64,000 bases of DNA, from positions 4,896,001 through 4,960,000 of the forward strand of contig OZ245817.1 in the NCBI GenBank assembly GCA_965228475.1. Reading direction: 5' to 3'. The DNA comes from Myxococcota bacterium (GTDB taxonomy: Bacteria > Myxococcota_A > UBA9160 > JAFDDA01). This document shows, one piece after another, positions 2,829 through 29,158 of this stretch (its first letter is position 1; every line of letters starts with the position of its first letter). Made by a program: the position numbers and the translations under genes. A model generated the notes under the pieces. That model was not told the DNA's origin, did not search any database, and worked only from the letters and a program-made list of their open reading frames with translations.

Positions 2829-3890
2829 ATGTGGCGCTCTCTCGTGGTCATGCTCGTGCTGGTCGCATGGGTCCCGCACGTCTCGTCCGCCAGCGATGGA
2901 CGGATCGAGCTGAACCACGCCTGCGCCACCGGCGCCGGATGCCTCCCCGGAGATACCTCCGGCTACCCCATCACGATCGATCTTCCCGGTAGCTACGTCC
3001 TCACCGGGAATCTAATCGGTCCGGACCTCGACACGGACGTGGTCCAAGTCGGGGCTTCGGCCCGCGGCGTAAGCCTCCATCTGAACGGGTTCCGCATCTC
3101 CGGTCCGTTCCTCAGCTTCCGAACGGCGGGGCTCGGCAACGGGATCACGGTGGCGAGCCTCAGCGAAGTGCGGATCCACGGAGGCACGATCCGTGGCGTC
3201 GGTGGCTTCGGCATTCTCGGCGGGCCGGAGACCCGCGTGGATCGGGTGACGATCCAGGGAGTGGGACGGTCGGCCGTCGCGGGCAACGTCGGCTATGTCG
3301 GCCGAAGCTTCCTGCTCGACAGCCTCGAACTCGGGATCGATTTCCAGGGAACGAACGCCTCGACCGTCGTTGCGCAGACCGTCATGCGCGGAAACGACGC
3401 GGGCTCCTTCGACGTGCAGGGCGTCGTCGTGGAGCTCGGAGGCAACGCCTGCGACGATGGTCTTTGCGACCCTCAAGGACGCAAGAAGTTCTTCCTCACC
3501 CAAACACTCCACGCAGGCGACGAGGCACCCGAAGCGTGTGGTGCCGGCTACCACATGGCATCGCTGGTCGAGATCTTCAGCCCGTCGGGCTTCTTCTACG
3601 ACCGGCAGCGAGGCGTACGCTCCGCAGACAGCGGAGCGGGGCCTCCCAGCGGTCTCGACTTTCCGGAACGCGCGGCCTACGGCTGGATGCGAACGGGGTA
3701 CGTCGCGAACCCGGGCCTCGGCCCCGACAACTGCGAAGCGTATACGTCGAGTGAAGGCACCGGCCTTCTGATGGCCCTGCAAAGTCTCTGGGCGGTGGCG
3801 CCCGTCCCCGCATCGCCCTGGATCCAGATCACGGACGAGGCGGAGACGCTCTGCGAACGTCGACAGCTCGTCTGGTGCGTGCAGGACTGA
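2829..3890 (+). CDS. Secreted protein, beta-helix-like N region plus Cys-rich C-terminal domain (paralog 1)
   Basis: Signal peptide; GCxPGDxxGYPxTIxxPGSYVLT motif; ends VWCVQD; clearly homologous to the next ORF. Confidence 0.75.
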   Translation: MWRSLVVMLVLVAWVPHVSSASDGRIELNHACATGAGCLPGDTSGYPITIDLPGSYVLTGNLIGPDLDTDVVQVGASARGVSLHLNGFRISGPFLSFRTAGLGNGITVASLSEVRIHGGTIRGVGGFGILGGPETRVDRVTIQGVGRSAVAGNVGYVGRSFLLDSLELGIDFQGTNASTVVAQTVMRGNDAGSFDVQGVVVELGGNACDDGLCDPQGRKKFFLTQTLHAGDEAPEACGAGYHMASLVEIFSPSGFFYDRQRGVRSADSGAGPPSGLDFPERAAYGWMRTGYVANPGLGPDNCEAYTSSEGTGLLMALQSLWAVAPVPASPWIQITDEAETLCERRQLVWCVQD

Positions 3891-3902
3891 GGAGGTGAGC
3901 CG

Positions 3903-4976
3903 ATGAGAGTCGCGTCTCTGGCGCTGATCGCCTCGTTGACGGCCTTCGCGGTCCCCTCGAGCGGATCAGCGGAAACGGGCCGCTTCGAGATCCACGAGGC
4001 GTGCGCCACCGGCGCGGGCTGCTTCCCGGGAGATTCGGGTGGCTACCCGGTCACGATCCTGAACCCCGGAAGCTACGTCCTCACGAGCAACCTCTCGGCG
4101 CCCGATCTCCATACCGACGTGATCCAGGTGAACCTGTTCGGCCGAGGGGTCGACGTCGATCTCAACGGATTTCGCATCGGCGGGCCGCCGTTGGCCTACC
4201 GTAACCCGGGAACGGGGCACGGCGTTTCCGTCGCGCCGACGGCCGAAGCGAACGTCTCGAACGGAACCATCCGCGGGGTCGGCGGCTCGGGCGTGACCGG
4301 CGGGCCTGGAACCCGGGTCGAGAACGTGCTCATCGTCGGCGTGGGCCGGTCGGGCGTCGAAGGCTCCGTCGGCTACGTCGGCGACGCCACGCTGGCCGCG
4401 AACGTCGGCTATGGCCTCGATCTCGATGCTGGCGCGACCACGGCGATGGCCCGGACCGTGATACGTGGCAACAACCTCGGCTCCTTCGGCACCGATGGGG
4501 TCGTGGTCGAGCTCGGTGGCAACGGCTGTGAAGACTCGCGCTGCGACTCGATGGGCCGAAAGAAGTTCTACCTGACGACGGAGTTCTTCCGGGCCTTCGA
4601 GGCGCCGGGTGCCTGCGACGAGGGCTTCCACATGGCGTCGCTCTTCGAAATGATCGACCCCTCGGACCTCGTCTACGATGTCGGCCGCGGGACCGTCCAG
4701 GCGGACAGCGGCCTGGGGCCTCCTACCGGATCGCTCACGCTCAACCTGGGCTGGGTCCGGACCGGCTACTCCGCCAACCGGGTCGGGGACGACGGCCGTG
4801 GCAACTGTGAGGCGTACGCCGACCCGATGCCGGGCTTCTCGGACGTCGGAAGCGTCGTTTCGCTCCAGCCCTTCCTCGGTGCCGCCCGTGCGGTCTCCCC
4901 CTGGAGTACCTCGGGCGGCGGGCCCCCCGACGCCGAATGCTACGCGGACAATCGCGTCTGGTGCGTCCAGGACTAG
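3903..4976 (+). CDS. Secreted protein (paralog 2)
   Basis: GGAGG RBS; signal peptide; same motifs and same VWCVQD end as 2829-3890. Confidence 0.75.
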   Translation: MRVASLALIASLTAFAVPSSGSAETGRFEIHEACATGAGCFPGDSGGYPVTILNPGSYVLTSNLSAPDLHTDVIQVNLFGRGVDVDLNGFRIGGPPLAYRNPGTGHGVSVAPTAEANVSNGTIRGVGGSGVTGGPGTRVENVLIVGVGRSGVEGSVGYVGDATLAANVGYGLDLDAGATTAMARTVIRGNNLGSFGTDGVVVELGGNGCEDSRCDSMGRKKFYLTTEFFRAFEAPGACDEGFHMASLFEMIDPSDLVYDVGRGTVQADSGLGPPTGSLTLNLGWVRTGYSANRVGDDGRGNCEAYADPMPGFSDVGSVVSLQPFLGAARAVSPWSTSGGGPPDAECYADNRVWCVQD

Positions 4977-5071
4977 GCGGCATCCGAGAACGCCGGTAAA
5001 CAAGCAAAAATTCAATAACTCCCAGCCTTTACGCCAACTTCCGCTTGGATTACCCTCCCGGCCGGGCCTGA

Positions 5072-7558
<2,487 letters not shown>

Positions 7559-21266: not shown

Positions 21267-22322
21267 CTAGGGGGCAAGGGGCGAGAGCCCGCGCTGACCC
21301 TCCAGCTGCGTCGGATCCGCGGCCTGCTCCGAGCCCAGCCGGGCCGCCTGGGAGAAGACGCCCTTGCGCTCGATGTAGGTTCGCCCGCGGAGCTCTTCCA
21401 TCCACTTCTCGTACTCGGTCTCGAGCCGCTCGTTGTAGATCTCGGTGTAGAGGTCCTGCTCGACGTCCGCGTAGTCCACGCGCTCGAAGCCGCGCCGCTC
21501 GACGACCTGGAAGAGGTTGCAGCCGAAGGGCATCTCGATCACTTCGGAGACGCCGCCGACGGGCAGGCCGCGCACCGCGTCCGCCATCCACGGCGCGATG
21601 TCCTCTTCGTGCACCCAGCCGACGTCGCCGCCGTTCTGGGGGTTCATGTCCGAGATTTCGCGCGCCACGGTGACGAAGTCCTCCCCGCCCTGGATGCGCA
21701 CGAGGCCGGCGCGCGTGCTCCCGCAGGCCTCCTCCATGCTGCGCGGGCCGTCCTTGCCGCCCGCGCGGACCAGGTGCCGCAGGTGCATCTCGTCGCCGCC
21801 GCTGCGCTGGCTCGCGTAGCGCCGGGCGTAGAGCTCCTTCACTTCCTTTTCTTCGATCTGGACCTTCGACCGCACCATCCCGTTCAGGATCTTCGTGCGC
21901 TGGATCTCGCCGCGGATCTTCTCGCGGTACTCCTCGAAGTCGACGTCGTGACTCTCGAGGCTCTCCTTGAGCTGATCCATCGTGATGCCGTTCTCGGTGG
22001 CGATGCTCTCGATGGCGGCGTCGATCTCGGCGTCGCTCGCCTCGAGCTCCATGTTCCGCACCACCTGCTCGACGAGCCGCCGCTCGATCAGCCGCTCGAG
22101 CATGTCCGAGCGGATCATGTCGATGTCGCGGTCCGTCGCGCCGGCGGCGCGCATCTTCTCTTCCATCGGGTCGGTGACGCGCGTGACCTCGGAGATCAGC
22201 ACGACGTCGGAGCCGACCTGCGCGGCGATCCCGTCGATCAGCTCCTCGGTCGCGGCGCCCGCGGGCGGTGCGGCGAGCGCGGCGGCGGTGAAGAGCGCGA
22301 GTGCGGAAAGCGGACGCAGCAT
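21267..22322 (-). CDS. surA: SurA-type periplasmic chaperone/parvulin PPIase
   Basis: Signal peptide, [16 protein letters not shown] SurA N-domain, [12 protein letters not shown]...GGDVGW parvulin motif. Confidence 0.85.
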
Positions 22323-22401
22323 GAGACCTCCGAGGTTCGGACACCGCACGGTGACCCTCGGGTTCGGACCGATCGCGAGGGGGCGGGGGTGCGCCGGGAT
22401 C

Positions 22402-23895
22402 TTAACTTGGCTCGGGGATCGGGTCTCGGGCCGTGTCGAGGGGGGGCTCGGCCTCGAGGCGGGCGCGCGCGCGGGCGAGGCGGGTTCGCCGCGCCTTCGG
22501 TTCCAAGGGATGGAAGGGCTCCATGCGGCGCGCGGCGCGGCCTTCGCCGCGGGGCTTCGCCGGGCCCGCTGCGCCCGGGGTCTTCTCCGCGCGGGCGAGG
22601 ACGTCGCGGCAGGTCCGCCAGAGGGTCGCCCGATCGGCCTTGCCGGGGCGAAGCTCGAGCGGCGGCTCCGGGCCCACGGCCAGGGCGTCCGGCCCCGCCG
22701 GCTCGCAGCCGGCGATGGGGAGCCCCTGCCCGATCCGCGCCACCGGCCGGCCGCTCGCGGCAAGCTCCGGGCAGCGCCGGGAGAGGTAGCGGGCACCCGC
22801 CAGGTAGTGGCCGTTGGTGACGACCCTCCGGCCCGCGGCGTCCCGGGCCCCGAAGGAGAGCTGGCGGTAGCGCTTGGGCTCGCCGCAGAAATCCATCCCG
22901 GCCAGGACGAAGCGGGCGGCGCCGAGCTCGGCGGCCAGGGCGAGCATGGTTTCCGAGACGGTCGTGACGGGCTCCGCGAGCACGGGCAGGCCCGCGCGCT
23001 GCCACGCCACCTGGTGGAGGTGGGGCGTCTCCAGGTGGAAGAGCACGGTCTTCCCGGGCCAGCGGTCGAGCAGCGCGGGCCGGACCGAGGTGTCGGCGAG
23101 CAGCACGCCGAAGTCGCCCGCGAGACCCTCGACGAAGGTCTCGAACTCGTGAGGGTCCGGCGCCACCACGAAGTCGGCGGTGACGCCCGCTTCCTCGAGC
23201 GGACGAAGCGCCTGGAGCGCGGCGAAGACGACGCCCCCCTCGCGGCGGCGAAGGGCCGCGAGGGCCTCCGCGTCGAGGGAGGGCCCCGGGGAGATGCAGA
23301 GAGCCGTCCGTCCGGCGCAGCACCCGGCGAGCTCCGCAGCCGTTCGTAGGTAGGGGATGCGCTCGAGCGCATCGATCGCGCGTTCGCTCACGACGGCGTC
23401 GCGCACGCGGAGCGGCTCGCGGGCTCCGCCGCCGAGTTCCGAGCGCGCAGCTTCGACGAGCCGCGCCGCGATGACGCGCGCCTCGAACCGGCACAGCTCG
23501 GTGTAGCCCGGGTGCAGCAGCAGCCGGCTCCCGCGCCGCCGCCCGGGGCACGCTTCGAGCCAGCGGTCGAGCGCTTCGAGATCCGAGACGACCGGCACCG
23601 GGGACGGCACGCGCTGCGCGCCGAGCTCGCCGGTGATCTCGGGGAACGGATCGAAGGCCACGGCGTCCGCGCCGACCGCCGCGAGGGCTTCGGGCACGTA
23701 GCCGAGCCCCAACCCGAGGAGCACCAGGCCGCCGCCGCCCGCAAGCTCGCCGGCCGCCCCCCGAGCGAAGCCCTCCGCCTCCCGCCGCGGCGCATAGCGG
23801 CTGTGGACGAAGCGCTCGCCGATCCGGAGCGTCGGCTCCCCGTCCCGGGAAGCCTCCGTCGCCCACTCGATCCCGGGCACCGCCGCTTGACTCAA
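22402..23895 (-). CDS. Maf/DUF115 (MptE-like) protein
   Basis: [31 protein letters not shown] motifs. Start uncertain. Confidence 0.75.
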
Positions 23896-24092
23896 TCCGG
23901 GCCCCTCCCTGCCCCTCACTTCGGTGCAACTCGCCGGCAGGTTGAGCCGGAGAGGGGCGCCTGGAGCGCCCTCTCCACGGCACCGCAAGAATTGGACCTC
24001 GATCGGCGGCCAAAATGGGAAGTAGGTACTTGATGCAATGGCGCACCAGTCCACCGGACCGCAGTCTTCGCTGTTAGTTCGGCGTGAGCGGC

Positions 24093-24464
24093 CTAGTCCG
24101 TCAGGTTCTTGGAGCGGATCTCGTGAGCGTGAACTCCGGACTCAATCTCGTTGATGAGCTTGAGCACCGCCTCGGTGGCGTCGCCCGCCTGTTGACGCAT
24201 GTGGATCCCTAGGTGGCCGATCAGCTCAACGGCTCGTTGCGCGAACTCGTGGAGCGTTGAGAGGTCGGCGATCTGCCGCTCCCGCAGCTCGTCGGTCAGG
24301 GCGTAGAGATTCGACGCGGTGGAGGCCGCGCCGAGCACGTCCGTGACCCAGGCGTTCGTGCTCTTGCCGGAGCGCGCCGCCGCAACCGAGACGGCCCGGT
24401 GAACCTCGGGACTCATCCGAATGCCCATCATCACCCGTTCGGTTTTCTCGGGGGTTGTAGTCAA
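24093..24464 (-). CDS. Ribbon-helix-helix (Arc/HicB-like) DNA-binding protein
   Basis: GIRMSPEVHRAVSVAAARSGKSTNAWV RHH pattern; GGGAGG RBS and TTG start 20 nt after the tRNA CCA. Confidence 0.75.
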   Translation of the reverse strand: MTTTPEKTERVMMGIRMSPEVHRAVSVAAARSGKSTNAWVTDVLGAASTASNLYALTDELRERQIADLSTLHEFAQRAVELIGHLGIHMRQQAGDATEAVLKLINEIESGVHAHEIRSKNLTD

Positions 24465-24483
24465 AGCTCCCTCCCTGGCGATT

Positions 24484-24573
24484 TGGCGGAGAGGGTGGGA
24501 TTCGAACCCACGGGGGGTGTAGGCCCCCAGGCGATTTTGAGTCGCCCGCCTTAAGCCGCTCGGCCACCTCTCC
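24484..24573 (-). tRNA. 90-nt class II tRNA: serine-identity body with CAA (Leu) anticodon
   Basis: GGAGAGG-TG-GCC GAGCGGCTTAA GGC-G-GGCGA CTCAAAA TCGCC-T-GGGGG CCTACA CCCCC-C-GTGGG TTCGAAT CCCAC-CCTCTCC-G-CCA; all stems pair; anticodon at 24539-24537. Confidence 0.92.
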
Positions 24574-24585
24574 GCCGTGATAGCG

Positions 24586-24614
24586 GAGTTAGCAACCAGG
24601 CATCTGATACGCAA
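24586..24614 (-). promoter_or_regulatory. Putative promoter of the tRNA-RHH operon
   Basis: TTGCGT-N17-TAACTC, ending 12 nt before the tRNA 5' end. Confidence 0.45.
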
Positions 24615-24632
24615 GAAATCTCGCACCCGCCC

Positions 24633-24670
24633 AAAAAAAGCGGGGCACGGGTCCTACACCCCCGTGCCCC
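24633..24670 (-). terminator. Intrinsic terminator
   Basis: Perfect 10-bp stem GGGGCACGGG/CCCGTGCCCC, 9-nt loop, then GC and 7 T on the minus strand. Confidence 0.85.
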
Positions 24671-24770
24671 TAGTTCGCGGTGGCCGAGCGGCCTAGTCCG
24701 CGTAACAGTCTTCCTCCGCTAGAGCGGATGGTCTTGGCGGCCCCTTTAGGGGGAGGTGTCCTTCACGACA
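24633..24770 (-). ncRNA. Candidate anti-tRNA small RNA (~140 nt)
   Basis: Putative promoter upstream, several hairpins, 3' terminator; two hairpins are complementary to the adjacent tRNA. Confidence 0.65.
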
Positions 24771-24776
24771 ACTCGC

Positions 24777-24806
24777 GTGTTACACCACCGCACTCGTGGG
24801 TCGCAA
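24777..24806 (-). promoter_or_regulatory. Putative promoter of the small RNA
   Basis: TTGCGA-N18-TAACAC, same pattern as the tRNA promoter. Confidence 0.4.
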
Positions 24807-24824
24807 GTATCCAGATTCTAAGCA

Positions 24825-24866
24825 ATTTCCGTGCCTTGACAAGTCGTGTCAAAAGGCACTGGAAAT
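24825..24866. promoter_or_regulatory. Long inverted repeat in the divergent control region
   Basis: ATTTCC-GTGCC-TTGACA-AGTCG-TGTCAA-AA-GGCAC-T-GGAAAT. Confidence 0.6.
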
Positions 24867-24973
24867 CAACATCTTTCCAAGCGCGTTGGATGGCTGCGGC
24901 GGAACGAAAGTTCACTACTTGGGAACTATCTTCTTATTTGCAATAAAGTAAAAGATACTGTATCGTCTTGGGT

Positions 24974-25966
24974 ATGGCGAAGAAGCACCCCCGCAACCCG
25001 ATCCTCGACGCGCTCCGCGAGGCAAGCCAGGACGAGGCGAAGGCCGTCGAGCTGCTTGAGGCTCGCCGCTTCGGCGACACGCCCGGCTGCCCCCGTTGCG
25101 GGGACACCGACGTCTACAAGATGCGGGACCGAAAGACGGGCGAGCGCGAGAAGAACTACCGATGGCGCTGCCGCGGCTGCAAGAAGATGTTCACGGTTCG
25201 CACCGGGACGATATTCGAGGAGACGCGGCTGCCGCTGCGCGTGTGGGTCTACGCTTTCTGGAAAGCGTGCGCGTCGAAGAAGGGTATCAGCGCCCTACAG
25301 ATCAGCCGGGAGTGCGAGATCAGCTACAAGAGCGCGCTCTATCTCATGCACCGCATCCGATATGCCATGCTCGAAGATCCCAGTGGCCAGCCGAAGCTCT
25401 CCGGCACGGTCGAAGTTGACGAGACGTTCGTCGGCGGAAAGCCGCGCCACTCCGTCCGAACGAAGATCAACCCGGTCACCGGAATGAAGCACCAGTACCT
25501 CCCGGCCTCCGCGAAGCCTGGTGGTTCGCCGAAGGTTCCCGTCGTTGCTCTGGTCGAGCGTGGAGGCCGTGTCCGTGCGCGTCAGATTGAGCGGGTGGAT
25601 CGCGAGTCTCTAGGCGGTGCCGTCCACGAGCTGGTCGAGTCTGGCGCAACGATCCATACCGATGAGAACCCGAGCTACCGCCACCTCGGCGCGCGCTACT
25701 CGCACGACTCCGTGAACCACACGCGGAAGGAGTACGTTCGTGGCGATGTGACTACCAACACGGTGGAAGGTTTCTTCTCCCTGCTCAAGCGTGGCGTCTA
25801 CGGGACGTTCCACTCCGTGAGCAAGCATCATCTTCATCGCTATCTGGCCGAGTTTGAGTTTCGGTACAACCACCGAGAACTCGACGACGGGGCGCGGACC
25901 CTCGCCGCTATCGACGGGGGAGAAGGGAAGCGCCTTTTGTATGAGCGATCTCCGACAACGGTCTAG
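24974..25966 (+). CDS. IS1595-family transposase
   Basis: Zn ribbon CPRCG...WRCRGCKK, HTH, VEVDET, IHTDE, TNTVEGFFSLLKRG, YLAEFEFRYN. Confidence 0.95.
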   Translation: MAKKHPRNPILDALREASQDEAKAVELLEARRFGDTPGCPRCGDTDVYKMRDRKTGEREKNYRWRCRGCKKMFTVRTGTIFEETRLPLRVWVYAFWKACASKKGISALQISRECEISYKSALYLMHRIRYAMLEDPSGQPKLSGTVEVDETFVGGKPRHSVRTKINPVTGMKHQYLPASAKPGGSPKVPVVALVERGGRVRARQIERVDRESLGGAVHELVESGATIHTDENPSYRHLGARYSHDSVNHTRKEYVRGDVTTNTVEGFFSLLKRGVYGTFHSVSKHHLHRYLAEFEFRYNHRELDDGARTLAAIDGGEGKRLLYERSPTTV

Positions 25967-25990
25967 TGGCGTACAGCTCCAACTTAAGCT

Positions 25991-26458
25991 CTAGCCCTGG
26001 ATCGTCACGCTGTGCTGCTTGATCTCAATGAAGAGTCTTCGGTCCTTCGCAGTCAGCCTGCGGTTGTGCTCCAGCTCGATCAGCTCAAGAGAGTGCTTGA
26101 CGCGGGCAAGCTCGCTCGCCTTGGTCTCGTTGCATTCGAGCGAGACCACGCCGAGGTTGCGCATTTTTGTGCGGCTACCCTTCGGCAGCCGTCGACTCGT
26201 CACCTCCTTGAAGTCCTTGTAGTTTCGTGTGACCAGAACCGCTCCGAGGTCATTCCCCGCCATCGCGATGACCTCGTCGGGTGACTGAAGGAGAAGGAGA
26301 TCGGAAACGTGGACGGTCTCGTGGTGCGCCGCCTTCAGTTCGTCGGCAACCCACAGGGGGACGTTCTCATCAATAAGGAAACGGATCCGTGGCTTGAGGC
26401 TCGGGTCAGCCGGCCTTGCGTCGTCGTGAGCGTTCGTCTCGGATCGCTGCCTTGACAT
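25991..26458 (-). CDS. PIN-like (DUF5615/Mut7-C type) toxin
   Basis: FLIDENVP...SPDEVI...LVTRNYKDF motifs; follows a DUF433 gene. Start uncertain. Confidence 0.8.
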   Translation of the reverse strand: MSRQRSETNAHDDARPADPSLKPRIRFLIDENVPLWVADELKAAHHETVHVSDLLLLQSPDEVIAMAGNDLGAVLVTRNYKDFKEVTSRRLPKGSRTKMRNLGVVSLECNETKASELARVKHSLELIELEHNRRLTAKDRRLFIEIKQHSVTIQG

Positions 26459-27047
26459 CCTTCTCAGTCAGTGTCGGGAAGCCGTCTACGATCTCTTCAA
26501 CGGTCATCCCAGAGCTGAAGTACCGCCAGATCAAACTGCTGGGAATCCGTGTTCCTGCAATCACTTGACGCCCGTTGAGGACATTCCTCCGTTTCGAGAG
26601 TTTCCCGATATCGGAGTCCTTCCGTGACCGCTTGCGCTTCAGAAGCCGCACGGTGTCGCTCCGCACTTCCTCAAGGTCGATCACCAGGATCGGGGTTTGC
26701 CTGTGAGGTTTCGTTGAGACGACTTCGTCAGTCCTAGGATCTCGGTACAGAAGCTCCTTCCCGGACAGAAAGAACTTGATGCTGGCCCACGGGTTGGGGT
26801 GATCTTCGTGAAACTCCTCATGGAGCGCACGATCTACCTTCCGAAGCTCTTGGAGGGGCACCCGCGTCCTGATCGGCGCGATGGCGCGAAGACCCACCAG
26901 GTCCCGGAACGAGTACACCCTTCGGTCGTCAACCAGGTACTCAGGGGAGAAGAAGTCAGTCTTGTCCCAGTATCGGAGTTGACGCTTGCTCAGTCCCGTC
27001 AGCTCCGCGACTTGGTCCTCGCCGAAGTAGGCGATCGAGTCAGTCAT
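26406..27047 (-). CDS. MerR-HTH plus DUF433 antitoxin
   Basis: VAELTGLSKRQLRYWD N-terminal HTH; GRQVIAGTRIP...GMTVEEIVDGFPTLTEKDVKAA DUF433. Confidence 0.85.
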   Translation of the reverse strand: MTDSIAYFGEDQVAELTGLSKRQLRYWDKTDFFSPEYLVDDRRVYSFRDLVGLRAIAPIRTRVPLQELRKVDRALHEEFHEDHPNPWASIKFFLSGKELLYRDPRTDEVVSTKPHRQTPILVIDLEEVRSDTVRLLKRKRSRKDSDIGKLSKRRNVLNGRQVIAGTRIPSSLIWRYFSSGMTVEEIVDGFPTLTEKDVKAAIRDERSRRRKAG

Positions 27048-27222
27048 CCGAGCACACCCCTATTGTTGCGTCCGAGCGGTTCGCTACCGTTCGGACGTCG
27101 GATGTGCCGACAGAGATTCCTCCTAAGACCTCGCCGGGCCAGGGCGGGGTCTTTGGTTTTCTGGGCCACGGCGGAAACCGGCCCTTCGGGTAGTCTCACC
27201 CCCCACACGCTATATTCCCGCT

Positions 27223-27372
27223 GTGGCTGATCCGGTCAAGCGCCCCGGCCCCGAGCCGGAGACATTGAAGGTCGAAATCGACCCCGAAGAGGGGTTGGCT
27301 CGCCTCTTGCGCGCCCAGCCGAAGCCGCCTCCGAAGGCGAAGAAAAAGCCCTCGAAGCGCCGGAAGTCCTAG
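27223..27372 (+). CDS. Small basic protein, 49 aa (not in ORF track)
   Basis: GTG start 6 nt after TATATT; MADPVKRPGPEPETLKVEIDPEEGLARLLRAQPKPPPKAKKKPSKRRKS. Confidence 0.55.
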   Translation: MADPVKRPGPEPETLKVEIDPEEGLARLLRAQPKPPPKAKKKPSKRRKS

Positions 27373-27515
27373 TCCTGGCCCTCTAGGGCCGCAGCGATCC
27401 TCTCCAGCGCCTCAGCGATCCGCCCAAATACCTGAACGATATTCGGATCTTCTCCGATCTTGGGAACGCGGTTGAAGGCATCGTTGACAGCCTGTGCGAG
27501 TGAGTCCTTGCTCAT
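27369..27515 (-). CDS. Small helical protein, 48 aa (not in ORF track)
   Basis: MSKDSLAQAVNDAFNRVPKIGEDPNIVQVFGRIAEALERIAAALEGQD; its stop overlaps the convergent ORF stop at CTAG. Confidence 0.45.
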   Translation of the reverse strand: MSKDSLAQAVNDAFNRVPKIGEDPNIVQVFGRIAEALERIAAALEGQD

Positions 27516-27581
27516 GGGTCACCAGGCTAACCGCAGGGCTCCGAACGCACAACGAACCGATAGACCGGCTACTTAGGCGAT

Positions 27582-27611
27582 TCCAATGCAATTCCGCGGC
27601 ATTGCATTGGA
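27582..27611. repeat. Subterminal palindrome of the IS right end
   Basis: TCCAATGCAAT-N8-ATTGCATTGGA. Confidence 0.8.
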
Positions 27612-27670
27612 TCCATACTTCCGGCCAAAATGGAGCTTTCCGGGACGGATTGGTGCCCTAGGCTCTCGCC

Positions 27671-29158
27671 ATGCTCGAGTTCAGCTTCCAGCCCGATCGC
27701 ACCCGCCGGGAGCCCGTCTATCGCCAGCTCGAGGGGTATCTCCGCGAGCTCGTCGAGAGCCGCCGGCTCGCCGCGGGGGAGCGCCTACCCGCGAGCCGCG
27801 AGCTGGCCGCGGCCCTCGGGCTCTCGCGCAACACGGTGAACCAGGCCTATCAGGCGCTGGTCGACGACGGTCTGCTCGCCTCCCACGTCGGCCAGGGGAC
27901 CTTCGTGCAGCGCCAGCCGGGGCCGGCCCTGCGGCCGGTCGGGCCCGCGGCGCGCGGCTTTGCCTGGGCCGGGCTGTTCGCGCGCCGCACCGCGGCGGTC
28001 GCGCTTCCGCCGGCCATCCTCGCCGCCGGCCGCATGCCGAACCCGCCCTTCGACTTCCGCCCGGGCCACGTCGACCTCGCGACGATCCCGAAGACGGAGC
28101 TCCGCCGCGCGATGTCGAAGGCGACGGAGCAGGTCGAGATGCTCGCGACCTGCCAGGACCCGCGCGGCTGGTTTCCGCTGCGCGAGCAGATCGCGCGCGC
28201 GCTCGTCGGGCGCGGCATCCGCTGCGGCCCGGACGACGTCGCGGTGGTGAGCGGTGCGCAGCAGGCCCTCGATCTCACCGCGCGCGTGCTCCTCGACCCC
28301 GGCGACACCGTCGTGATGGAGCAGCCGGGCTACTTCGGCGCCGCGCTGGCCTTCGGCGCGAGCGAAGCGCACCTGGTCGGTGTCGGCGTGGACGAGCACG
28401 GGCTTCGCACGGACGAGCTCGCCCGCATCCTGCGCGCGCGCCGCGTGAAGCTCGTCTACACGACGCCGGCCGTGCAGAGCCCGACGGGCGTCGTGCTCTC
28501 CGACGAACGCCGCCGCGCGCTCCTCGACCTCGCCGACGAGTACCAGGTGCCCGTGGTCGAGGACGACTACGACAGCGAGCTGCGCTACGGCACGCCGCCG
28601 ACGCCGGCCCTGAAGACCCAGGACGAAGCGGGCCAGGTGATCTACGCCGGCACCTTCTCGAAGGCGCTCTTCGCCGGCATCCGCGTCGGCTACGTCGTGG
28701 CGGCGCAGCCCTTCCTGCTCCAGCTGATGGCGACGCGCCTGGCCGCGGACTTCCGCACGGACCTGCTCGCCCAGGCCGCCATGGCCGAGCTGCTCGAGAG
28801 CGGCGGCCTCGAGCGCCACGTGCGGCGCGTGCGCCGCCTCTACTCCGCGCGCCGCGCCGCGATGCTCGACGCCCTGCGCGCGCACATGCCCGAGGGCACC
28901 CACGTCACCGAACCCGCCGGCGGCAACACGGTCTGGGTGCGGCTTCCGTCGGGCATCGACGGGGCCGCCTTCCACGCCGCGGCCCTGGCCGCCGGGATCG
29001 AGTACGGACGCGGCGATCTCTTCCGCCTCGACGGGGCGAGCATCGACCACGCCCATCTTTCCTTCGCCCAGATGGGGCCGCGCAAGATCCAGGAAGGCGT
29101 CGCGCGCCTGGCCGATCTCGCCCGCTCCGAACTCCGCCGCGCCCGCGAAACCGCCTAG
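27671..29158 (+). CDS. MocR-family (GntR plus PLP aminotransferase domain) regulator
   Basis: RLPASRELA..LGLSRNTVNQAY wHTH; SGAQQAL, EDDYDSE, GTFSK. Confidence 0.93.
   Translation: MLEFSFQPDRTRREPVYRQLEGYLRELVESRRLAAGERLPASRELAAALGLSRNTVNQAYQALVDDGLLASHVGQGTFVQRQPGPALRPVGPAARGFAWAGLFARRTAAVALPPAILAAGRMPNPPFDFRPGHVDLATIPKTELRRAMSKATEQVEMLATCQDPRGWFPLREQIARALVGRGIRCGPDDVAVVSGAQQALDLTARVLLDPGDTVVMEQPGYFGAALAFGASEAHLVGVGVDEHGLRTDELARILRARRVKLVYTTPAVQSPTGVVLSDERRRALLDLADEYQVPVVEDDYDSELRYGTPPTPALKTQDEAGQVIYAGTFSKALFAGIRVGYVVAAQPFLLQLMATRLAADFRTDLLAQAAMAELLESGGLERHVRRVRRLYSARRAAMLDALRAHMPEGTHVTEPAGGNTVWVRLPSGIDGAAFHAAALAAGIEYGRGDLFRLDGASIDHAHLSFAQMGPRKIQEGVARLADLARSELRRARETA

Follow-up and report, generated by a model that had tools for sequence, protein, structure and literature searches.

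A tRNA with a serine body and a leucine anticodon as cargo of an IS1595-family transposon: a possible mobile, throttled missense tRNA

Introduction

Why would a transposon carry a tRNA whose body calls for one amino acid and whose anticodon calls for another? The question is raised by a 64,000-nt stretch of the genome of a Myxococcota bacterium (GenBank assembly GCA_965228475.1, contig OZ245817.1, positions 4,896,001 to 4,960,000), hereafter the window, to whose whole length all coordinates refer unless a locus is named. Here, inside an IS1595-family transposon and read on the minus strand between 24864 and 24093, a palindrome overlapping a promoter, a leader RNA of ~175 nt, a terminator, a 59-nt spacer, a tRNA and a gene for a ribbon-helix-helix (RHH) protein follow one another (Table 1). 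We describe the anatomy of this module, the conflict between the identity and the anticodon of its tRNA, its mobility, a complementarity between leader and tRNA that is rare in controls, and the recurrence near related transposases of mismatched class-II tRNAs, that is, tRNAs with a Ser or Leu body, whose synthetases ignore the anticodon. Judged from sequence, we give about an even chance to the view that the module is a mobile, tightly throttled Ser-for-Leu missense tRNA carried as transposon cargo.

A canonical tRNA with serine identity and a leucine anticodon

ARAGORN calls a single tRNA in the whole window, at 24484-24573 on the minus strand, and Rfam recognizes it as such (56.3 bits, E 1.8e-10). 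Its cloverleaf, with a 7-bp acceptor stem, a 3-bp D stem, a 5-bp extra arm and a 5-bp T stem, has zero mismatches in the ARAGORN fold. Over nucleotides 1-27 and the final 30 nt, the tRNA agrees base for base with the host tRNA-Ser(GGA), and the match is exact in the D and T arms, the acceptor stem and the discriminator (position 73 is G); the identity of the cargo tRNA is 77-82% to the four host tRNA-Ser as against 60-68% to the five host tRNA-Leu. The extra arm (T-GGGGG-CCTACA-CCCCC-C, 18 nt) leaves one unpaired base on each side of its stem, which is the geometry of the Ser type, and the tRNA follows the serine identity rules of E. coli throughout: G73, G1-C72, G2-C71, A3-U70, C11-G24 and a 3-bp D stem. 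Substrates of leucyl-tRNA synthetase carry A73 and a Leu-type D arm and loop; the cargo tRNA has G73 and a D arm unlike those of all five host tRNA-Leu.

The anticodon loop, CUCAAAA, presents the anticodon CAA, which reads the leucine codon UUG, and the A36-A37-A38 context is kept. An intact tRNA with Ser identity and a Leu anticodon is what the initial annotation of this DNA had read from the sequence, and ARAGORN, Rfam, the flawless cloverleaf and the comparison with the host tRNAs all agree with it. The host has its own tRNA-Leu(CAA), with A73, elsewhere in the genome in addition to its four tRNA-Ser. In a search of 401 genomes of the phylum, the closest natural counterparts were tRNA-Ser(CGA) with the loop CUCGAAA, the best of them matching at 77 of 90 nt with equal length and the same extra-arm layout. 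Read by eye, the cargo tRNA differs from the nearest Ser(CGA) mainly in the anticodon stem and the extra arm, with all of its own stem pairs intact, and at its simplest it looks like a Ser(CGA)-type tRNA with a G35A change. The stems of 7 bp and 5 bp make it a canonical tRNA and rule out an allo-tRNA of the 8/4 or 9/3 kind.

Seryl-tRNA synthetase (SerRS) ignores the anticodon. Its anticodon independence has been demonstrated with Ser-identity tRNAs bearing Leu anticodons (PMC5389517). Given this blindness and the Ser identity set, the cargo tRNA should be charged with Ser and should insert it when decoding UUG. In 2,199 long open reading frames (ORFs) rich in G or C at the third codon position, a crude selection from the host genome, UUG accounts for 1,914 of 981,979 codons (1.95 per 1000, 1.9% of Leu codons), so that toxicity or burden in this host should be weak.

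The module is an addition to a mobile element

The block 24019-27621, with 55-65% GC against 70-78% in its surroundings, is a 3,603-bp IS1595-family cargo transposon flanked by an exact direct repeat. Its terminal inverted repeats, 24019-24044 and the reverse complement of 27596-27621, match at 18 of 26 positions as counted by eye, the script having registered no more than a core of 12 nt (24033-24044 with 27596-27607). The block holds one transposase, that of the IS1595 family, and no short inverted repeats lie immediately around its ORF, either here or in 10 homologous loci, the true ends being the borders of the island. In a genome of the same family (G002), the site is empty, the flanking genes being ~220 bp apart and similarity resuming at 27624, and the block is likewise absent from the other species of the genus (G001). 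The transposase, both kinds of repeat and the empty site confirm that the module lies inside an IS1595 element, as had been proposed.

A genome of the same order (G889) carries an element whose transposase is 78% identical and whose cargo (DUF5615, MerR-DUF433 and tiny protein) and ends are the same, the terminus GAAGTAGGTA... being common to both. That element lies upstream of an orthologous MocR-type gene and has its own exact 12-bp repeat, CGCCTGAAATGG, at both ends. The repeat copies are identical within each genome and different between the window host and G889, which favours independent insertions, and a preferred target sequence for the transposon, CG(G/C)C(C/T)(A/G)AAATGG, is suggested. 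In G889, the left end lies ~95 nt from the transposase start with no tRNA there, so the tRNA module (~0.9 kb) is an add-on between the left end and the transposase.

As further observations on the carrier, the G889 element (locus L089, G889:C6) spans ~3900-6450 in locus coordinates, 2.55 kb, at the orthologous site. Sequencing run X2, over 23800-27800, yielded island contigs at a depth of 69-98 against ~130 for the flanking contigs, with one break exactly at 27622; island-free cells or strains may co-occur in that sample, and no joined form was reported there.

A single promoter, a terminated leader and an RHH gene

In the minus-strand order of the module, the control region comes first. A scan of 23900-25100 returned one promoter-like site, which lies ahead of the leader; the initial annotation had placed a promoter there and a second, similar one before the tRNA, and the scan did not find the second. 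The palindrome that covers the -35 box of the promoter is a candidate operator. The leader itself had been described as a structured RNA of ~140 nt with a strong terminator. The terminator holds (10 bp fully paired between 24670-24661 and 24651-24642, followed by T7 at 24639-24633), but the length comes to ~175 nt, and the fold, at -82 kcal/mol (z -2.26), is only moderately better than shuffled sequences. Across 22000-28000, no Rfam family except tRNA reaches its gathering score, and the leader matches neither the T-box nor any other leader RNA model of Rfam; the only Rfam row on it, CcsR1, scores 17.7 bits against a threshold of 65.3.

The RHH gene begins with TTG 19 nt after the CCA of the tRNA, essentially at the 20 nt first noted, and its start codon is preceded by GGGAGGGAG, a ribosome-binding site of its own. 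The product matches HicB (PF05534; E 9e-8, 32.3 bits against a cutoff of 21) with an N-terminal ribbon-helix-helix, and its predicted AlphaFold model (pLDDT, the predicted local distance difference test score, 79.8; helices 19-31, 36-63, 68-89 and 93-122) shows two RHH helices and a helical C-terminal domain. Neither a HicA-like partner ORF nor any protein toxin gene adjoins the RHH gene. No match to the protein was found in the PDB by sequence (E<0.004) or by Foldseek (E<0.5); weak structural rows (bS20, Arc and an arm of SerRS) were discarded and are not used as evidence.

Table 1. Features of the tRNA module and its carrier transposon, in window coordinates.
Feature	Coordinates	Strand	Description or basis
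Left direct repeat copy	24007..24018		12 bp, CGGCCAAAATGG (target duplication); exact match with 27622-27633
Left terminal inverted repeat	24019..24044	+	26 nt, imperfect; GAAGTAGGTACTTGATGCAATGGCGC
RHH (HicB-family) gene	24093..24464	-	123 aa, TTG start; Pfam PF05534
tRNA	24484..24573	-	90 nt, anticodon CAA; ARAGORN, Rfam tRNA; Ser body (G73, Ser-type D arm, 5-bp extra arm)
Intrinsic terminator	24633..24670	-	10-bp GC stem, 9-nt loop, then G, C, T7
Leader (upstream RNA)	24633..24808	-	~175 nt; 5' end predicted from promoter, 3' end set by terminator
Antisense match to tRNA nt 47-61 (extra arm)	24649..24663	-	14/15; terminator loop and flanks; complementarity search
Antisense match to tRNA nt 6-22 (acceptor/D arm)	24679..24695	-	16/17; itself a hairpin; complementarity search
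Sigma-70-like promoter	24842..24815	-	TTGTCA-16-TAGAAT; promoter scan, 10/12 consensus positions
Imperfect palindrome over -35 box	24826..24864		12-nt arms, 83% complementary, 15 nt apart
IS1595-family transposase	24968..25966	+	332 aa; Pfam DDE_Tnp_IS1595 1.1e-42, Zn_ribbon_IS1595 7.8e-9; NCBIfam transpos_IS1595 3e-57
DUF5615 (PIN-like) cargo gene	25991..26458	-	Pfam; kept in the G889 element
MerR-DUF433 cargo gene	26406..27047	-	Pfam; kept in the G889 element
Tiny protein	27223..27372	+	49 aa, basic tail; tblastn matches across the transposon clade
Right terminal inverted repeat	27596..27621	+	26 nt, imperfect
Right direct repeat copy	27622..27633		12 bp; exact match with 24007-24018

The leader is complementary to the tRNA

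Two segments of the leader are complementary to the tRNA, one to the acceptor and D arm and the other to the extra arm; the initial annotation had noted two hairpins complementary to the tRNA. Among 20,000 random segments of the genome, 186 nt each, 0.07% reach the top match and 0.025% reach the sum of both, and the segments that do so probably include antisense strands of tRNA-Ser genes. When tRNAs are ranked by complementarity to their own upstream 200 nt, the cargo tRNA comes first among the 59 ARAGORN calls in the host genome. The complementarity is thus not a product of chance.

Some features of the match nevertheless count against a specific antitoxin. Both matched segments of the tRNA are hairpins, as are their complements, and part of the match consists of the G-run/C-run stem. 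The middle of the leader shares the colinear blocks ATCCGCTC, the exact 15-mer CGGACTAGGCCGCTC and CGAACTA with the RHH 3' end and its trailer, which suggests that this part arose as a partial tandem duplication of the RHH 3' end, and a non-functional origin is therefore possible for part of the antisense match. No remnant of the RHH protein was found in the leader at the protein level.

Mismatched tRNAs recur elsewhere

A pattern consisting of a Ser-type D arm followed by CUCAAAA was searched for in species genomes, metagenomes and viral contigs, and it matched at seven loci across 185,579 species genomes, at 11 among the metagenomes and nowhere in the viral contigs. Two of these 18 loci hold intact Ser-body CAA tRNAs (L014, L026). 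In another (L013), which occurs twice in its genome and belongs to a relaxase-bearing element, the top of the acceptor stem is defective; other matches are 3'-truncated (L016), run off the contig end (L018), have acceptor mismatches (L035), are 5' halves or degenerate (L015, L017, L019, L034), or are interrupted within a tRNA array (L033). Ordinary A73 tRNA-Leu account for five loci (L027, L028, L029, L031, L036), and two are not tRNAs (L030, L032). The two loci with intact tRNAs each carry an Abi_2-type gene with the motif RNRxAHHEPIF at most ~1 kb from the tRNA (L014 1444-1935 and L026 3015-3809, both on the minus strand; BLASTP E 2e-9 to each other), a motif absent from the other 16 pattern loci, from the window and from the host genome. 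L014 has an IS1595 zinc-ribbon fragment nearby as well.

By ARAGORN, 3 of 19 other transposase-homolog loci have a tRNA, 16 have none in the available flanks, and at two the tRNA is mismatched. These two, L066 (57% transposase identity) and L064 (42%), both adjoin IS1595 transposases; their Leu-type bodies of 89-93 nt, with A73 and a D arm of the Leu type, are called Pro(UGG) by ARAGORN and recognized as tRNAs by Rfam (L066 1234-1322 in tRNA orientation, L064 1343-1435). Neither locus has an RHH gene of the window's family. Mismatched class-II tRNAs thus recur near related transposases, and they also turn up in other mobile or defence settings. At three distant IS1595 loci on plasmids, no tRNA is present.

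Some details of these loci may be recorded here. Directly 5' of the tRNA in L014, at 3040-3056, lies a 12-nt perfect complement to tRNA nt 2-13, which would pair with the 5' strand of the tRNA as a precursor hairpin. L013 and L076, on separate contigs of genome G420, carry the same Ser-like CAA tRNA in two identical copies, with mismatches in the top two pairs of the acceptor stem, and one copy sits between HTH (helix-turn-helix) genes and a MobA/MobL relaxase. L033, a metagenome contig of 1103 bp, has a Ser-like CAA tRNA interrupted in its T loop behind Phe, Asn, Ile-TAT and Trp tRNAs and looks like a phage-type tRNA array with an insert. By our own count, the L066 tRNA has C instead of U at position 33; its element also has an NYN-domain gene. 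A rare-codon link for L066 was dropped, the CCA codons of the tiny protein being usual for the element and also present in tRNA-less elements. Likewise rejected was a small ORF downstream of the tRNA in L026 that appeared RHH-like by eye, with no match to Pfam or to the RHH-family profile.

A throttled missense tRNA and what weighs against it

If the module is a throttled missense tRNA, transcription would start at the single promoter and mostly stop at the leader terminator. Read-through would give a tRNA-RHH precursor from which the tRNA would be cut out, and the RHH protein would probably repress the promoter via the palindrome. The serylated tRNA would then compete with tRNA-Leu(CAA) at UUG. 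Two brakes, the leader terminator and RHH repression, would keep the output of tRNA low, and damage to the host would be further limited by the rarity of UUG and by competition from the true tRNA-Leu(CAA); UUG-rich foreign genes would suffer more than host genes. Within the leader, the antisense matches may work on read-through precursors in cis, may work in trans, or may be what is left of a duplication and an inverted tRNA fragment. For the transposon, the benefit could lie in addiction, in harm to incoming UUG-rich foreign genes, or in stress-linked mistranslation.

Several observations count against this explanation. The module is unique: in none of the collections searched did another leader-tRNA-RHH module turn up, and nothing matched beyond the tRNA part. 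DNA searches of the host's own genome, 60 relatives and plasmids gave no copy, nor did searches of viral contigs with the tRNA pattern, the RHH protein and a leader 22-mer, or of plasmids with the RHH protein. The RHH protein has just 17 relatives among 1.84 billion representatives, all distant though full-length (27-49% identity), and a word-index search returned the protein itself only. An RHH profile has matches in 9 of the 401 phylum genomes, including the host (G000); the other eight cover mostly the N-terminal part, and a tRNA is present at none of those eight loci. The same profile gave no match in 351 genomes of another phylum or in the five genomes with other Ser/CAA loci.

The carrier adds further points of this kind. 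Because its closest relative, the G889 element, is without the module, the transposon does not need the tRNA, and the available flanks of most related transposase loci (16 of 19) are free of any tRNA. The direct repeat of 12 bp is longer than the 8 bp of IS1595 elements, and old vertical inheritance might instead account for the shared insertion site in G889. Several of the other Ser-body/CAA matches are degenerate or truncated, and such sequences evidently also arise as junk; the cargo tRNA could have arisen recently by G35A mutation of an acquired tRNA-Ser(CGA) that was redundant, and be tolerated because UUG is rare. Public sequencing runs with the island number three, from two studies, with identical contigs, and no RNA run is among them.

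Alternative explanations

Many of these points feed the alternative that survives best, which we nevertheless hold to be unlikely: the tRNA is a neutral hitch-hiker, a spare tRNA-Ser(CGA) with a G35A change that persists because UUG is rare and expression is low, while the antisense segments are relics of rearrangement, namely a second copy of the RHH 3' end together with inverted pieces of tRNA, of which one was reused as the terminator hairpin. The nearest natural tRNAs, with CGA, are a single anticodon base away from CAA, UUG stands at just 1.95 per 1000 codons, the closest related element does without the module, and many other Ser-body/CAA matches are broken. The colinear repeats tie the leader to the RHH 3' end, and because a sequence complementary to a tRNA hairpin forms a hairpin too, structure alone could preserve antisense segments. 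Relics of an inverted tRNA, however, would have to account for only two tRNA-complementary pieces at 93-94% identity, with the rest of the inverted copy unrecognisable and the two pieces in an order that is not that of an inverted tRNA copy. A passenger decaying without function also sits poorly with a cloverleaf free of defects, which differs from Ser(CGA) in the anticodon stem and the extra arm and yet keeps every stem pair of its own, and with the recurrence of mismatched class-II tRNAs near related transposases and in other mobile or defence contexts.

The initial annotation had instead proposed a stable proteotoxic tRNA as toxin and a labile antisense RNA, directed at the D and extra arms, as antitoxin, with the RHH protein as regulator; the tRNA would be freed when the element is lost or host transcription stops, for addiction or abortive defence. 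Its components are there, namely a mobile tRNA with Ser identity and a Leu anticodon, an RHH gene next to it and a complementary RNA. The complementarity is statistically rare, the predicted binding of leader and cargo tRNA by co-folding (-12.2 kcal/mol) is reached by 1% of 400 random segments, and the extra-arm match puts a loop-loop pairing of 6 nt into the loop of the terminator. The leader has its own promoter and terminator, the RHH protein comes from an antitoxin-like family with no protein toxin gene adjoining, the Ser-body CAA tRNA of L014 is preceded by its own 12-nt perfect complement, and allo-tRNAs that combine an identity for Ser with anticodons for Leu are toxic in E. coli (PMC5389517).

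This model, which we regard as distinctly unlikely, falters at the antitoxin role. The longer, 17-nt match is unspecific, fitting three host tRNA-Ser as strongly as the cargo tRNA (GGA -13.1, UGA -12.0 and GCU -11.5 kcal/mol), so that the leader would be titrated by these abundant tRNAs or would harm them, and the D arm to which it is directed is buried in the folded tRNA. The scan gives the tRNA no separate promoter, so toxin and antitoxin may be one transcript. UUG, the codon at which the toxin would act, is rare in the host, and part of the leader duplicates the RHH 3' end. Moreover, no homologous module was found, and the complementarity does not recur in related elements: the best match is 7-8 nt in L066 and L064, with no antisense match exceeding 8 nt in either, and the best is 6-8 nt when L026 and L013 are included.

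A non-decoding role, with the tRNA as decoy, substrate or sensor for putative tRNA-directed RNases of mobile elements or as an RNA with a structural or regulatory task in the transposon, could explain the RNase-type cargo beside odd tRNAs (the PIN-like DUF5615 here, NYN in L066, HEPN Abi_2 in L014 and L026), but it is the least probable of the alternatives and highly improbable in our view, given that such RNase genes are common in mobile DNA, that G889 has the DUF5615 pair without a tRNA, and that all features for charging and decoding are kept, including A36-A37-A38.

Relation to known systems and significance

In type VIII toxin-antitoxin systems such as CreT-CreA, the toxin is an RNA, and CreT sequesters a tRNA. 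On the toxin-antitoxin model, the module would resemble CreT-CreA in having an RNA toxin that acts on translation and is checked by another RNA, and would differ in that the tRNA itself would be the toxin. As to the carrier, transporter insertion sequences (IS) of the IS1595 family with passenger genes were reportedly described by Siguier, Gagnevin and Chandler in 2009; like them, the window element encodes a DDE transposase whose N-terminal part is a zinc ribbon, ends in terminal inverted repeats, is flanked by a target duplication and carries passenger genes, but its direct repeat, put at 10-12 bp, is longer than their 8 bp.

The closest parallel for the tRNA is found in the allo-tRNAs, which place Ser at Leu codons and halt the growth of E. 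coli (Mukai et al. 2017, PMC5389517; review PMC7609411), have been found near toxin-antitoxin and transposon genes, and include, in the (9/3) type, anticodons for UUA/UUG (PMC5389517; PMC7609411). Like the cargo tRNA, they combine the Ser identity set with Leu anticodons. Unlike it, they are defined by 8/4 or 9/3 stems, whereas the cargo tRNA is of the 7/5 type with three arms identical to a host tRNA-Ser, and it rides in a delimited IS1595 transposon, accompanied by a leader RNA and an RHH gene. The tRNAProX/ProA family of Streptomyces also presents a natural conflict of identity and anticodon with programmed mistranslation, but has Pro identity and a dedicated synthetase, ProRSx, whereas here the host SerRS should suffice (PMC10404621); the strings 'transpos', 'mobile' and 'toxin' do not occur in the main text of that paper. 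In a literature search that took in few subscription journals, we found no description of an IS1595 cargo tRNA with an identity/anticodon conflict or of a tRNA toxin with an antisense partner.

Natural mistranslating tRNAs are known from few cases, the allo-tRNAs and tRNAProX among them. The locus adds a canonical Ser tRNA with a Leu anticodon, in a complete genome, within a precisely delimited transposon and behind an apparent control region, and the window and G889 elements form a clean natural pair with and without the tRNA module. Why mobile elements carry mistranslating tRNAs thereby becomes a question approachable by ordinary genetics.

A broader idea, which we offer as speculation and consider distinctly unlikely, is that IS1595 cargo transposons spread anticodon-swapped class-II tRNAs as regulated translational weapons, for example as a mobile 'genetic-code firewall' or an addiction module. 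A Ser-inserting UUG reader would be held in check by the RHH-controlled promoter, the terminator and leader-tRNA pairing, and its release would poison translation. In a 72%-GC host almost without UUG, UUG-rich phage or plasmid genes, or cells losing control of the element, would be hit preferentially. If true, this would be a natural mobile module with a tRNA as toxin, corrupting UUG-rich genes of phages or plasmids.

Other observations on the window and the host genome

The tiny protein at the right end of the transposon is found in at least six other elements of the clade: G889, with a 49-aa ortholog, L066, L059, L060, L090 and, weakly, L063. In the window copy, three of four Leu codons are TTG, against 2 of 74 in the other island genes (binomial p ~8e-5, post hoc), while in the G889 ortholog, whose element has no tRNA, TTG accounts for one of six. 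The TTG-rich protein could be coupled to the cargo tRNA, or the excess could be due to chance.

Other odd ARAGORN calls in the host genome (for example at 2026194, 2953628, 4378041 and 3967154) have four-base anticodons or are Gly, Ala or Arg 'tRNAs' of 92-97 nt, and are probably false positives. Just upstream of the transposase start, at 24927-24957, lies an AT-rich palindrome, TATCTTCTTATTT...AAAGTAAAAGATA, which may be the operator of the transposase promoter.

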